Virus record (IMG/VR): IMGVR_UViG_3300045988_117355
Strand: one strand, 5' to 3'
DNA from: a virus
DNA: 64,000 bases
Shown here: positions 47,038-55,108 of the stretch, in pieces
How positions within the stretch are numbered: position 1 is the stretch's first letter
How the letters are laid out: every line of letters starts with the position of its first letter
Position numbers and translations under genes: made by a program
Notes under the pieces: model-generated
Told to the model about the DNA's origin: nothing
Databases searched by the model: none
What the model saw: only the letters and a program-made list of their open reading frames with translations

Positions 47038-47450
47038 ATAGTATAATTTTGGATTTTTTAAGAAAGAGTTTATTTAAGGGAGATATAGCTCTTCAGGAGG
47101 CTTTGGAAACTGGTGTTGAAGTTGGGGATTTGACTGCTTTATCTTGGGATGAGTATCTTAAAGTAATCCCCTGTTCAGATATTGATGGCAAATATAGCAA
47201 ATCTATTGTAGCCACATACAAGTTAGAACACTTAATGCTTTATTTTAATAGGGTAGTTGAATATAGACCCGATTGGCTAAATGATTCACAAATAAAATAT
47301 TGTATTCATCCATCTAGAGGAAGTTTATATGTAGATAAATATAAAAGTTCTCATAATTTTCTCCTTGCGTTTCCAAATGAATATATTGCAAATTTATTTA
47401 TAAGGAAGAACAAGGATATTATTTACGATTATTATAGAATGCAAAAATGA
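47034..47450 (+). CDS. hypothetical protein
   Basis: 138 aa. Confidence 0.4.
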   Translation: MNSIILDFLRKSLFKGDIALQEALETGVEVGDLTALSWDEYLKVIPCSDIDGKYSKSIVATYKLEHLMLYFNRVVEYRPDWLNDSQIKYCIHPSRGSLYVDKYKSSHNFLLAFPNEYIANLFIRKNKDIIYDYYRMQK

Positions 47451-48037
47451 AAATATTAATTATAGTAGATCCACAATATGATTTTCTTGATAAAAATGGG
47501 TCTTTATATGTAAAGAATGATCATTTGACAGAGTCTATTAGTGATTATGCAATATATCACAAAGATTTTGATAGAGTATTTATCACTATGGACAATCATC
47601 CAATTAATCATTGTAGCTTTACCCAATTTGGAGGACAATTTCCTACTCATTGTGTAGAAGGAAGTTTAGGAGCTTCTTATGATAATAATATATTAAGTAT
47701 TATAGATCATTATAGAGATAAATATACGATAATTTCCAAAGGAGGATGGGCTCATCAAGAGGAATTTGGGGCTTTTGGAAGTACACATACAATTAGTCTT
47801 TTTAAACTTCTTTTATTATCTAATAAAGAGGAACACTCAATAGAGGTTTGTGGAGTTGCAGGAGATTATTGTGTAAAGGAAACTATATCTAATTTATTAA
47901 ATAATTTCAAAGGAATTATTAGTAATGAGGATGTTTATGTTCTTGAAGATTTAGTAGTGTCTATTGATGATGGAACTACCCTTAAGGAATTTATTAGAGA
48001 AAAAGGAATACAAGTGATAAATGAATTGTGTAGCTGA
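47447..48037 (+). CDS. pncA: nicotinamidase (PncA, isochorismatase/cysteine-hydrolase family)
   Basis: 196 aa; LIIVDPQYDF, metal site DNHPINHCSF, THCVEGS, catalytic GDYCVKET align with E. coli PncA motifs. Confidence 0.8.
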   Translation: MKILIIVDPQYDFLDKNGSLYVKNDHLTESISDYAIYHKDFDRVFITMDNHPINHCSFTQFGGQFPTHCVEGSLGASYDNNILSIIDHYRDKYTIISKGGWAHQEEFGAFGSTHTISLFKLLLLSNKEEHSIEVCGVAGDYCVKETISNLLNNFKGIISNEDVYVLEDLVVSIDDGTTLKEFIREKGIQVINELCS

Positions 48038-48356
48038 ATGTGAATATTGCAAAAGTGTTAATGTATGTATAGATAGTCCTAACTGTAATACAACTGGACA
48101 CTTTTGCACTAAATTAAATAGATTAGTTTCTATTAATAAACCTGTTGATGAAGATTGTCCATTTTATTCTAATAAATATAGTTATAGAGAGCTAATCAAT
48201 TTAAGGGATTCTTTAATCTCAGAACTATATAAAGTTAGGGTCAAGTGGTATGAAGGAGCTACTATTACTTTAAAAGATTCATTATTTGCACAGGATATTG
48301 AAGATGCAGTATATAATGTATTTAATAAATTATTAGATAAACAAAATGGAGATTAA
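48021..48356 (+). CDS. Cys-rich small protein
   Basis: 111 aa; N-terminal CVAECEYC...C..C. Confidence 0.35.
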   Translation: MNCVAECEYCKSVNVCIDSPNCNTTGHFCTKLNRLVSINKPVDEDCPFYSNKYSYRELINLRDSLISELYKVRVKWYEGATITLKDSLFAQDIEDAVYNVFNKLLDKQNGD

Positions 48357-49518
48357 ATCAATTTTAGATACAGATCTATATAAATTCTCTGTATCATATG
48401 CTTACATGAGATTATTCCCAGATGCAATTGGAACATTTGAATTTGTAGATAGGAATAAATCTCACTATACAGAAGATGATCTGGATTATATAAGTTATGA
48501 ACTTGCAAATCTTTCTACACTTAAATTAAGTGATAATGAGAAAAGATTTATGCAAGATAGATGTTACTTTATTCCAGATTATTATTTTGAATGGTTGCAA
48601 TCATTTAAATTCGATTGTAAGAATTTATCTATTTCCTTAGATGAAGAAAGCCATCTTCATATAAAGGTTACAGATTATTTATATAAAGTAACTCTTTGGG
48701 AGATTCCAATTCTTGCAATAGTTAGTAGAACCCAGCATAGAGAAGACAAATGGAATATAGATGATTTATATACTAGAACTAGTAATAAAGTACACAACCT
48801 TCCATATGAATTCAAAGTTGCCGATTTCGGAACTAGAAGAAGATTTAATTTTGAAGTTCAGTCAGAAGTGATTGATAAGTTATTACATGATTGTCCTCAA
48901 AATTTTGTTGGAACATCTAATTGTTATATAGCTTATCTAAGAGATATTAAAATGATTGGAACTTTTCCTCATGAGTGGGTGATGTTTCATGGTGCTATGT
49001 ATGGATATGATCAGGCTAACTATTTAGCTTTAGAGAATTGGGTTAATGTATATGATGGAGAATTAGGAATTGCTTTATCTGATACTTACACATCTGATGT
49101 GTTCTTTAGAAATTTCTCTAAGAAACATGCAAGATTATTTGATGGAGTAAGACAAGATTCTGGAGATCCATTTCAGTTTATTAATAAATGTATTGATAGG
49201 TATAGAGAATTAAATGTAGATCCTCTTACTAAAACTATCGTATTCTCGGATTCATTAGATTTCAAGAAAGCAGTTGATATATTTAATTGCTGTAAGGGAA
49301 GGATTAAATGTTCATTTGGAATTGGAACTAATTTAACTTGTGATTTAGAAGGAGTTAAGCCTTCTAATATTGTGATGAAATTAGTTTCTTGTCAGATGAA
49401 TAGTAAACAACCTGTGAAGAAATGTATTAAACTATCTGATGTAGAAGGAAAACATATAGGTGATCCAGAAGAAGTAGCGTTAGCACAAATGATAATAAGT
49501 CAACATTATGATGAGTAA
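48346..49518 (+). CDS. pncB: nicotinate phosphoribosyltransferase (PncB, E. coli-type ~400 aa)
   Basis: 390 aa; SILDTDLYKFS, LWEIPILAIVS, ADFGTRRRFNFEVQ, FVGTSN, FGIGT align with E. coli PncB. Confidence 0.8.
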   Translation: MEIKSILDTDLYKFSVSYAYMRLFPDAIGTFEFVDRNKSHYTEDDLDYISYELANLSTLKLSDNEKRFMQDRCYFIPDYYFEWLQSFKFDCKNLSISLDEESHLHIKVTDYLYKVTLWEIPILAIVSRTQHREDKWNIDDLYTRTSNKVHNLPYEFKVADFGTRRRFNFEVQSEVIDKLLHDCPQNFVGTSNCYIAYLRDIKMIGTFPHEWVMFHGAMYGYDQANYLALENWVNVYDGELGIALSDTYTSDVFFRNFSKKHARLFDGVRQDSGDPFQFINKCIDRYRELNVDPLTKTIVFSDSLDFKKAVDIFNCCKGRIKCSFGIGTNLTCDLEGVKPSNIVMKLVSCQMNSKQPVKKCIKLSDVEGKHIGDPEEVALAQMIISQHYDE

Positions 49519-53403: not shown

Positions 53404-53404
53404 T

Positions 53405-54028
53405 ATGAAGATAATAGGTAAATATAAAGATTATTATGACTATATCCAGGGAAAATATGGAATAGATGAAGATGTAATACTTGACAGAAGGAATTTTGTG
53501 TGGGATGTACCTGCTACTTATAAACCCTTTAACCCTGACCCATATGTTTCACACAGGTTCAGGAGTTTAAAGGAATATTCTTATGAAGTATTACTTCAAA
53601 CAGGATTTGTTCAATATTTAATAAAAGTTCAACATAATTTAGATGGAACTAACATTCCAACTTTAGTGAAGAAGTTTGAATCAGAAGTAAATATTGGATC
53701 TTGTCCTGTACTTCTAATGCCACCAGAGATCACTTATTGTATTAGTGGAGCATTTTATAGAGGGTTGAAAGATTATAATCTTGATGATATTAAATCAATT
53801 AAAAAAGCCTTTGAAAGAGGGGAAGGTGAACTTCTTAGAAGTACTAAACTTCCAATTTTAAAAGATACTTTTATTCCTAAAATTATTCCTGCGGAAGAAG
53901 TATATAATAATATTTATAATTATCTATTATACATGAAAGAGCCCAAAGTAGTAGATACGAGGACTAACAAGCAGAAAATTGAGGGAAAAGGATTTGATTA
54001 TAAAGAAAGCTTTAGAAATATAAAATGA
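53405..54028 (+). CDS. hypothetical protein
   Basis: 207 aa. Confidence 0.4.
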   Translation: MKIIGKYKDYYDYIQGKYGIDEDVILDRRNFVWDVPATYKPFNPDPYVSHRFRSLKEYSYEVLLQTGFVQYLIKVQHNLDGTNIPTLVKKFESEVNIGSCPVLLMPPEITYCISGAFYRGLKDYNLDDIKSIKKAFERGEGELLRSTKLPILKDTFIPKIIPAEEVYNNIYNYLLYMKEPKVVDTRTNKQKIEGKGFDYKESFRNIK

Positions 54029-54624
54029 AAATAGGATTATTATTTGGATCATTTGATCCATTTCATATTGGGCACTTATCAATGATTACCTCGGCATTAA
54101 ACTCTAAACAAGTTGAAGCCGTAAGGGTTGTAGTTGCATATCAAAATCCATGGAAGGAAAAATGTTTGGCAAGATTTACTGATAGATTTGATCTTACTTT
54201 AGAAGGCTGCAAGGGATTATTTAAACACGTAACAGTAACTTCTATTGAGGGAGTGCTTGCAAATATTTTACATAGACCTCCATATACTTTTGAAGTACTA
54301 GAACATATCAAGTCTTCTAATCCAGAAGATGAGTTTTGTATAATAACATCAGATGAGACATTTTCTGAAATAGAAAATTGGAAGGAAGGTAAAAAGATAT
54401 TAAAAGAAAATGATTTTCTTATAGTCCATAGAGAGGGATTCGCACAGAATTTCTATAAACCTATAGAATGTAAATCTTATACCTTTATTAAATCTGAATT
54501 TAATCTTGAAGTATCTTCAACTAAGATTAGGAATATGCTATTTAGAAAGATTAACCCAGTTCCTTTCATCTCAGCTGATCAGTATTATTATATTCAATGG
54601 AATTATTTATATGAAAAACTTTAG
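54025..54624 (+). CDS. nadD: nicotinate/nicotinamide mononucleotide adenylyltransferase (NadD-like)
   Basis: 199 aa; N-terminal LLFGSFDPFHIGHL matches NadD (H/T)xGH motif. Confidence 0.7.
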   Translation: MKIGLLFGSFDPFHIGHLSMITSALNSKQVEAVRVVVAYQNPWKEKCLARFTDRFDLTLEGCKGLFKHVTVTSIEGVLANILHRPPYTFEVLEHIKSSNPEDEFCIITSDETFSEIENWKEGKKILKENDFLIVHREGFAQNFYKPIECKSYTFIKSEFNLEVSSTKIRNMLFRKINPVPFISADQYYYIQWNYLYEKL

Positions 54625-55108
54625 TGTAGAAGTAGAAGGAAAGACCTATTGGATTTCTAGATCTATTGCAGTAGCTGGATTTATATTCTCCAAACTTGAA
54701 AATAATTGGTATATACTAGCTAATAAAAGAGGAGAGGGTGCTCCTGATTATGTAGGATGCTGGAATTGTCCTTGTGGATATTTAGACTATGACGAGACTT
54801 TATCAGAGGCTTGCTCAAGAGAAATCTTTGAAGAAACAGGAGTGTCTATAAGAGAAGATGAATTAAACTTTGAAGAGATTAATGACTCTTTGGAAAATAG
54901 ACAAAATGTTACAATTAGATTTACTAAATTTGATGATACAGGTAAACTGATTAATCAGGGACTAACATCTAGATATTCAGAAGATCAGGAAGTAGATGAT
55001 ATTAAATGGATCAGGGTTAAAAGTATTGATAACTATGATTGGGCATTTAATCATAAAGAGATTATTAAGGATTTAGCAAAATTTTATTTAAATTTTAAAT
55101 ATGAATAG
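54611..55108 (+). CDS. Nudix hydrolase (ADP-ribose pyrophosphatase-like)
   Basis: Nudix box GEGAPDYVGCWNCPCGYLDYDETLSEACSREIFEETGV; start moved to in-frame ATG 54611 (track ORF starts 54506 inside nadD). Confidence 0.65.
   Translation: MKNFSVEVEGKTYWISRSIAVAGFIFSKLENNWYILANKRGEGAPDYVGCWNCPCGYLDYDETLSEACSREIFEETGVSIREDELNFEEINDSLENRQNVTIRFTKFDDTGKLINQGLTSRYSEDQEVDDIKWIRVKSIDNYDWAFNHKEIIKDLAKFYLNFKYE

Follow-up and report, generated by a model that had tools for sequence, protein, structure and literature searches.

Depletion of NAD+ ranks among the most frequent strategies of bacterial immunity against phages, and the virus record IMGVR_UViG_3300045988_117355 raises the question whether a phage can carry the complete deamidated (Preiss-Handler) route from nicotinamide back to NAD+ and, if so, what such a route would be for. 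The stretch analyzed here, referred to as the window, comprises 64 kb of viral DNA. The region under study covers positions 47447-55108 and the gene string considered runs from 47034 to 56049; the compared contigs and loci that carry related genes are labeled L001 to L069. We found that the region encodes homologs of nicotinamidase (PncA), nicotinate phosphoribosyltransferase (PncB), a NadD-family nicotinate-nucleotide adenylyltransferase and an NH3-dependent NAD+ synthetase (NadE), together with a Nudix hydrolase. Profiles, motifs and matches to PDB entries agree with the presence of the four enzymes, as it had been proposed in a first-pass annotation of the sequence, and the four proteins very probably carry out the chemistry assigned to them. 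The best explanation of the locus would be a phage-borne deamidated NAD+ salvage that chiefly sustains NAD+ against depletion, a reading that we hold with about as much confidence as doubt.

The first-pass annotation had allowed for the possibility that PncB would be a nicotinamide phosphoribosyltransferase (NAMPT), that PncA would lack the Asp-Lys-Cys triad and that NadE would lack the P-loop, and none of this was found. PncB is, by its sequence, unambiguously a nicotinate phosphoribosyltransferase (NAPRTase) and not a NAMPT. It passes the equivalog models TIGR01514 (422.1 bits; cut-off 269.55) and NF003704 (433.8 bits; cut-off 379), contains both the NAPRTase_N (PF17767) and the NAPRTase (PF04095) domain, and all six of its PDB matches are NAPRTases, the best being the one of Porphyromonas gingivalis (2im5, 6e-124), while the PHROG NAMPT family matches at merely 55 bits. 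The PHEW motif (residue 208) is shared without change by 2im5 and the homologs of L008 and L016, and its histidine (H209), the His of the GT.PHEW motif, is presumably the ATP-coupled phospho-histidine of Salmonella PncB. NadE scores 132.7 bits against TIGR00552 (cut-off 63.65) and 127.7 bits against PF02540 and possesses the PP-loop SGGIDS. The open reading frame (ORF) is listed from a TTG at 51236, but an ATG at 51275 or 51284 is the likelier start. The protein of ~309 residues consists of a single domain that spans positions 4-240 of the 242-position Pfam model and lacks a glutaminase (CN-hydrolase) domain, which makes it of the ammonia-dependent type; its best three PDB matches (3fiu, 74.8 bits; 3p52, 73.9 bits; 1xng, 72.3 bits) are all single-domain NH3-type proteins. 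The NadD-like protein displays the motifs HIGH (residue 14) and SSTKIR (residue 164), and its 14 PDB matches are all NadD structures and none of them NadM. For PncA, the significant PDB matches (phmmer) were nine nicotinamidase/pyrazinamidase sequences, with 6.5e-20 as the best value. Its triad D8/K98/C142, the residues of which we take to have the roles known from 1im5, aligns with the triad region of Pyrococcus horikoshii PncA and is invariant in 24 homologs, and the same holds for the invariance of the metal site D49/H51/H68 within the DNHPxNH...HCV motifs, an Asp-His-His arrangement that presumably separates nicotinamidases from generic isochorismatases. Several of the PncA relatives carry a precomputed PF00857 match. 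Judged from its sequence, PncA represents a divergent phage clade, and it is the weakest of the four enzymes by profile score.

On the basis of these assignments, PncA would hydrolyze nicotinamide to nicotinate and NH3, PncB would convert nicotinate and phosphoribosyl pyrophosphate (PRPP) to nicotinate mononucleotide (NaMN), the NadD-family enzyme would convert NaMN and ATP to nicotinate adenine dinucleotide (NaAD), and NadE would form NAD+ from NaAD, ATP and NH3, the ammonia released in the first step being equal to that used in the last. The Nudix hydrolase would cleave ADP-ribose (ADPR), the other product of NAD+ cleavage, to AMP and ribose-5-phosphate, which the host could turn back into ATP and PRPP. 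The benefit would be that NAD+ is kept up when host NADase defenses (TIR, SIR2 and similar) or the NAD+ consumers of the phage itself drain it. A nearby ADP-ribosylglycohydrolase (ARH), a SLOG-fold protein and, in a relative, NADAR proteins would probably remove ADP-ribose adducts or signals.

PncA, PncB, NadE and NadD, together with one particular Nudix hydrolase, recur in at least ten other viral contigs, in which PncB is 45-99% identical and the gene order varies. The full five-gene set was found within 10 kb in MT835470.1 (a 117-kb human fecal phage) and in L002-L005, L008-L012 and L018. Besides MT835470.1, the carriers are IMG/VR and Logan contigs of 77-195 kb, a range also spanned by L008-L012, which have a PncB that is ~47% identical; L007 is truncated where its contig ends. 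PncA, PncB and the Nudix hydrolase remain together locally in jumbo contigs of 361-413 kb. In the 735-kb huge phage LR756501.1 (L068, 20001-28423) PncB (43% identical), NadE (32%) and PncA (29%) lie within 8 kb; Li et al. 2024 (PMC11662467) credited LR756501 with nadD alone, and the genome would also hold the full route if nadD is located elsewhere in it. An ARH gene lies 14 kb upstream of this group. The cultured Agrobacterium jumbo phage Atu_ph07 (L066, 3347-9245) has a PncA-PncB-Nudix trio, considering that the PncA-like AUZ95018 (annotated as a hypothetical protein; hmmsearch 5.5e-18), the ADP-ribose pyrophosphatase AUZ95020 and PncB (AUZ95024) are encoded within 6 kb. The record 'Acinetobacter phage MD-2021a' (L067, CAKLQH020000008.1) was set aside as a phage example, as the neighbors of its pncB (thiL, nusB, ribH, serB, psd and phoBR) look bacterial-chromosomal and the record seems mislabeled. 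Among 43 loci of Bacteroidales genomes, pncB occurred alone or beside a divergently oriented pncA. The full NAD set was not found in any of these within the flanking sequence covered (up to 6 kb), and NadE was near pncB in one of them, which is possibly viral. Given that the clustering is present in the phages and absent from the bacterial loci, the cassette would seem to have been assembled in phages from Bacteroidales-like genes and not to be a captured operon.

Table 1. Predicted genes of the NAD cluster and its surroundings (positions in the window).
Product	Position	Strand	Basis and remarks
PncA, nicotinamidase	47447..48037	+	PDB phmmer matches, motifs
Cys-rich 111-aa ORF between pncA and pncB	48021..48356	+	same position in L002-L005, L018-L020
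PncB, nicotinate phosphoribosyltransferase	48346..49518	+	equivalog profiles
AAA+ ATPase, BCS1-like, variable cassette member	49508..50575	+	PF00004 36.7 bits, phrog_14322
123-aa protein	50565..50936	+	phrog_16527 at 2.6e-25; part of AAA indel block
121-aa ORF	50929..51294	+	position taken by NADAR-encoding segment in relative L018
NadE, NH3-dependent NAD+ synthetase	51284..52213	+	TIGR00552, PF02540, SGGIDS
Small CX3CX2C protein, possibly radical-SAM-like	52206..52730	+	CPNNCSLC at residue 13; phrog_31524
98-aa ORF	52733..53029	+	conserved in L002, L018, L020
Minimal YpsA-like SLOG-fold protein, 123 aa (putative nucleotide/ADPR-derivative binder or N-glycosidase)	53032..53403	+	
207-aa protein	53405..54028	+	phrog_4243 at 9e-12; conserved in L002, L018, L020
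NadD-family nicotinate-nucleotide adenylyltransferase	54025..54624	+	PF01467 52 bits, motifs
Nudix hydrolase, ADPR-binding branch, probable ADPR pyrophosphatase	54611..55108	+	overlaps nadD
Ferritin-like protein	55101..55679	+	PF00210 52.6 bits
ADP-ribosylglycohydrolase (ARH/DraG family)	40278..41045	+	PF03747 87 bits, phrog_6572; 6.4 kb upstream

The overlap of the Nudix gene with nadD, which had been noted before, measures 14 nt, the gene starting at an ATG (54611), and the Nudix box (GX5EX7REUXEEXGU) is intact, with the sequence GYLDYDETLSEACSREIFEETG at residue 56; R70, E71, E74 and E75 are invariant across 36 sequences. A structural model of the protein is closest to ADPR-bound NrtR and to the NadM-Nudix ADPR pyrophosphatases. 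Considering the fact that the nearest structures are of the ADPR type and that the catalytic box is intact, the protein is probably an ADPR pyrophosphatase. A proline around 15 residues after the Nudix box is a marker of some ADPR pyrophosphatases, and at that distance no proline is present. The phage protein is a stand-alone domain of 165 residues, with neither a winged-helix DNA-binding domain nor a fused adenylyltransferase, and a role as NrtR-like regulator was rejected for the lack of the former and the intactness of the catalytic box.

Other proteins near the cluster point in the direction of ADP-ribose as well. The protein encoded at 53032..53403 has a Rossmannoid SLOG fold with a glycine-rich loop and belongs to the YpsA-like clade, in line with its earlier assignment. 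Its family is large (proteins of ~125 residues, forming 1387 clusters at 50% identity), and among ten longer SLOG-containing proteins scanned with Pfam no informative fusion came up bar one ClpX zinc finger. Homologs of the upstream ARH are encoded between pncA and pncB in L007-L009, L011 and L012 (the L008 copy at 9204-10001), and one adjoins pncB in the huge phage LR756500 (L069, at about 21836-22618). In L018, a close relative with 89-93% nt identity, a segment (13470-13970) with two PF08719 NADAR ORFs of 77 and 78 residues replaces the unrelated 121-aa ORF of the window; the NADAR coding sequence at 13472-13963 corresponds to window 50930-51294. ARH, NADAR and SLOG are all domains of NAD+/ADPR conflict systems, and viral SLOG domains have been predicted to bind or cleave ADPR-derived ligands (PMC9503650). 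The PADLOC models gave no meaningful match for the SLOG, ARH, AAA or PncA proteins. The earlier suggestion of a larger NAD/ADP-ribose module is thus supported by the NrtR/NadM-type Nudix hydrolase, the SLOG fold, the upstream ARH and the NADAR proteins of the relative.

The surroundings of the cluster are those of a phage. The window encodes replication and nucleotide enzymes, including a family A DNA polymerase (PolA), a helicase, an exonuclease, RNase H and a deoxynucleoside monophosphate kinase, as well as homing endonucleases and two endolysin-type proteins. The G+C content is ~29-30% across the window, and the NAD cluster shares both this value and its strand with the surroundings, where genes on the + strand are densely strung from ~14.5 kb onward. 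A megablast search with the region as query found nothing among 50,697 phage records. The closest sequences are viral, namely 101-176-kb IMG/VR contigs that stem from a single sample and have a PncB that is 87-99% identical, and a Logan contig of 184,649 bp (logan:ERR12405972_945) with 89-93% DNA identity; none of the compared contigs is identical to the window. The bacterial relatives of PncB are all from Bacteroidales/Bacteroidia (44-51% identity), including genes of Bacteroidales metagenome-assembled genomes, and among deposited phages the nearest relatives of PolA (59761-61932) are those of the crAss-like Bacteroides phages cr108_1 (52%), IAS virus (51%) and PhiCrAssBcn (49%). On account of these two relationships we infer a Bacteroidales host. 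Membership of the Crassvirales is not claimed, as the helicase and a 1525-aa protein of the relative MT835470.1 do not match those of crAss phages.

The finding region consists of 14 consecutive ORFs, all on the + strand. After correction of the starts, the string from 47034 to 56049 has 15 gene junctions, of which 12 are overlaps of 4-17 nt and three are gaps, one of 13 nt and the others of 1-2 nt. Co-expression, on which the first-pass annotation had made its proposal depend, thus finds its sequence-level counterpart in genes that overlap or abut in one orientation. Shine-Dalgarno-like sequences were not detected upstream of the cluster genes, which would agree with a host in the Bacteroidota, and the Bacteroidetes motif TAnnTTTG was not found in the few intergenic gaps. 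As a scan of the cluster for sigma-70 promoters and terminators likewise gave nothing that stood out, it is the gene packing by itself that points to co-expression, and the cluster is probably co-transcribed within the early/replication region of a large gut Bacteroidales phage.

Natural variants of the cluster were found in the relatives. In near-identical phages from two samples (L019, SRR36242906, and L020, SRR36242905) the segment that corresponds to window 48527-52151 is missing, so that pncB has lost its 3' part and nadE most of its length, along with the AAA gene and two small ORFs. A pncB-nadE fusion remnant of 78 residues is left, the gene of the CX3CX2C protein is split (104 and 62 aa), and PncA, SLOG, NadD and Nudix are present. 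L002 lacks window 49512-51293 (the AAA block), including the 123-aa protein, which is absent together with the AAA gene. Its flanking cluster genes are mostly 96-99% identical to those of the window, but NadD (13923-14519) is 51% and the CX3CX2C protein (12116-12625) 55% identical at the protein level, which looks like mosaic allele replacement. The deletions and allele swaps are suggestive of an accessory module that is conditionally useful.

The AAA+ ATPase, the ferritin-like protein and the CX3CX2C protein are not demonstrably parts of the pathway. The first and second had been recognized before and their domains are borne out by the Pfam scores (Table 1). The AAA+ protein has BCS1 as its best PDB matches, and its gene, which is located between pncB and nadE in the window and after nadE in MT835470.1, is variably present among the close relatives, jointly with two small ORFs. 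The ferritin-like gene is found downstream in L002-L005, L018 and L020, and was not found in L001 or L007-L017. The small cysteine-motif protein had been called a radical-SAM protein; the CX3CX2C motif was indeed seen, but the family matches are weak (HxsC, 22.6 bits; pVip, 16 bits). In L007-L012 its gene adjoins the polymerase gene and not the NAD genes. As for the small ORFs, the Cys-rich one between pncA and pncB had no match in Pfam, PHROG or PADLOC, and the 121-aa and 98-aa ORFs had no family match in the Pfam and PHROG scans.

Some features elsewhere in the window may be listed as well. A total of 27 tRNA genes on the + strand (18983-34228), covering all 20 amino acids, lie among small ORFs and homing-endonuclease-like genes, including one for a LAGLIDADG protein (26133-27092). 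At 36016-37842 a protein of 608 residues is encoded in which an SPFH/Band 7 domain was recognized (90 bits), together with a weak match to flotillin; it is unusual for a phage and conserved in L018. The adjacent ORFs 44013-44459 and 44450-45253 share the N-terminal sequence MCL(I/T)V...H(I/K)AE.DI.CYKL and are apparent paralogs, the latter matching phrog_13450 and phrog_11581.

Could the genes simply be Bacteroidales host DNA, either mis-binned or recently captured as a functionless passenger? The PncB affinities, the public 'phage' record that looks like a bacterial chromosome and the deletion variants, which show that the segment is dispensable, could be taken that way. Nevertheless, the set lies amid phage genes (from PolA, helicase, homing endonucleases and endolysins to the tRNAs), matches its surroundings in G+C and strand, and is kept in viral contigs whose PncB identity has fallen to ~47%, with invariant catalytic residues and without a clustered counterpart in the bacterial genomes. 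This explanation is therefore largely refuted and very improbable. The chemistry could also follow an order like that in Francisella, with the NadE homolog acting as a nicotinamide mononucleotide (NMN) synthetase (NaMN to NMN) and the adenylyltransferase then converting NMN to NAD+, with the same net result. The top PDB match of NadE is 3fiu, which we take to be the entry of the Francisella tularensis NMN synthetase, the adenylyltransferase is divergent, and its gene is followed by the overlapping NadM-type Nudix gene. The margin of 3fiu over 3p52 is less than 1 bit, however, and the adenylyltransferase matches structures and models of the NadD family alone and not NadM; to our knowledge, NMN synthetases are uncommon and found where NadD is lacking. 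We consider the Francisella-like order unlikely.

The more serious alternative concerns the purpose. The same chemistry could serve general metabolic support, or complement a weak salvage in the host, without any link to immunity, and this 'NAD-jumbo phage' view is a real, if doubtful, possibility. The clusters of Li et al. 2024 accompany many NAD+-consuming phage genes and a complementarity of phage and host pathways, and these authors take such genes as general support of phage NAD+ needs (PMC11662467). Furthermore, infection by PA5oct up-regulates the host pncA-pncB1-nadE operon, and the present cluster sits among genes for replication and nucleotide metabolism such as those for RNase H, the monophosphate kinase and PolA. 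Against this stand the lack of any NAD+-consuming enzyme among the ~60 window ORFs scanned and the company of ADPR-processing domains typical of conflict systems. The analogous NadV and NadM genes, moreover, were first taken as metabolic and were later shown to act in counter-defense. A counter-defense purpose of the cluster is plausible, and we would put the chances for and against it level. A more far-reaching proposal is that the cluster constitutes a fourth phage NAD+ reconstitution pathway (NARP; hence 'NARP4') of large gut/rumen Bacteroidales phages, one that would be self-contained, recycle both NADase products, with the ammonia of the first step feeding the last, and overcome defenses of the Thoeris/SIR2/DSR type, with ARH, NADAR and SLOG stripping ADP-ribose adducts or cyclic-ADPR signals. 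We put this forward tentatively and would not bet on it.

Several observations, besides the interpretation given by Li et al., weigh against a phage-borne salvage route that sustains NAD+ against depletion. Two of the enzymes stay below curated cut-offs: PncA scores 24.8 bits against PF00857 (gathering threshold 27) and 38.1 bits against NF008623 (cut-off 174), and the NadD-like protein scores 91.3 bits against TIGR00482 (cut-off 112.45), although its best-scoring models are still all NadD. The Pfam check suggested in the first-pass annotation thus found PF04095, PF01467 and PF02540 but fell short for PF00857. NadE scores alike against 3fiu (Francisella) and ordinary NadE proteins. The AAA+ gene is present in L001, L004, L005 and L018 and not in L002 and L003, and in two other phage contigs the SLOG family has a neighborhood without NAD genes, so that the link between SLOG and the pathway is local to the close relatives. 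The counts in the scan for sigma-70 promoters and terminators equaled those of shuffled controls. Finally, four steps consume more ATP than NadV/NadM does, and the route may lack the speed to outrun a NADase.

As far as gene content goes, the phage Preiss-Handler pathway has been described before. Li et al. 2024 (Microbiome, PMC11662467) reported that salvage or Preiss-Handler routes are complete in 174 jumbo phages of the gut, described a pncB-nadD-nadE cluster in Kuafu_71, of a clade with predicted Bacteroidota hosts, and mentioned phage pncA. The earlier supposition that the four-enzyme route is undescribed as phage counter-defense holds insofar as the route is not among NARP1-3: neither Osterman et al. 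2024 nor the paper on NARP3 (PMC13464706) mentions PncA, PncB or NadE, and a 2022 survey of viral NAD+ systems lists NadV, NadM and NadR alone (PMC9503650). It does not hold for the gene content. In the searched literature we found neither an experimental test of the deamidated route as phage counter-defense nor a combination of NARP1 with these genes. What the window adds is a well-supported example that is apparently outside the jumbo size class, an integral PncA step at the start, a conserved ADPR-type Nudix hydrolase, the ARH/NADAR/SLOG company and the deletion variants. Experimental proof exists for three phage NAD+ reconstitution pathways, none of which takes the deamidated route. If the present reading is true, the classical four-enzyme pyridine nucleotide cycle would be mobilizable by phages and tied to an ADPR pyrophosphatase, which would be relevant to phages of the dominant gut phylum Bacteroidota, the phage-defense biology of which is little explored. 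The compact cassette and its natural deletion variants could be put to a test as they are. What lessens the interest is the earlier report of the gene content from metagenomes and the fact that the evidence from the window is sequence inference.

The closest comparison is with the NAD-jumbo phages of Li et al., which likewise have clustered pncB, nadD and nadE genes, come from gut metagenomes and are known on wholly computational evidence. Unlike the Kuafu clusters, going by their published description, the cassette of the window includes PncA, so that the route would start at nicotinamide, and has a co-conserved NrtR/NadM-type Nudix hydrolase; the ARH/NADAR/SLOG neighbors and the natural deletion variants are documented here for the window and its relatives. 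The size may differ as well: NAD-jumbo phages exceed 200 kb; the window covers 64 kb of its genome, the relatives with the full set measure 77-195 kb (the closest contigs 101-185 kb), and more distant relatives with PncA, PncB and Nudix measure 361-413 kb. The four families, and presumably the reactions, are the same as in the pyridine nucleotide cycle of bacteria (PncA, PncB, NadD and NadE; compare the Pseudomonas pncA-pncB1-nadE operon), but in the sampled Bacteroidales the genes are dispersed and in the phage all four stand in one co-directional string with the Nudix gene. That Nudix protein differs from NrtR and NadM-Nudix in its stand-alone form. With NARP1 and NARP3, which both restore NAD+ under NADase attack, the cluster shares the proposed role and none of the enzymes. 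NARP1 (Adps and Namat) re-joins ADPR pyrophosphate with nicotinamide, while ADPR in the window phage would probably just be degraded by the Nudix hydrolase, and no PRPS-like ADPR pyrophosphokinase or Namat was detected among the cluster proteins with Pfam, NCBIfam and PHROGs. NARP3 (PnuC and NadR) imports nicotinamide riboside (PMC13464706); PnuC was not found among the scanned ORFs, and the sole NadR match, of 26 bits, concerned the HIGH motif region. NARP2 (NadV with NadM/NatV, in Vibrio phage KVP40 and others), which counters NAD+-depleting defenses (bioRxiv 10.1101/2024.02.11.579819), resembles the cluster in that NAD+ is made from nicotinamide and PRPP and in that an ADPR-type Nudix domain accompanies the adenylyltransferase. 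NARP2 takes two amidated steps via NMN and the route of the window would take four deamidated ones via nicotinate, NaMN and NaAD; in place of the NAMPT and the NadM-type enzyme that define NARP2, the window has a NAPRTase (TIGR01514) and a NadD-type enzyme, plus the NAD+ synthetase that is then needed. In NARP2 adenylyltransferase and Nudix are fused, and the separate, overlapping nadD and Nudix genes of the window mirror that fusion.

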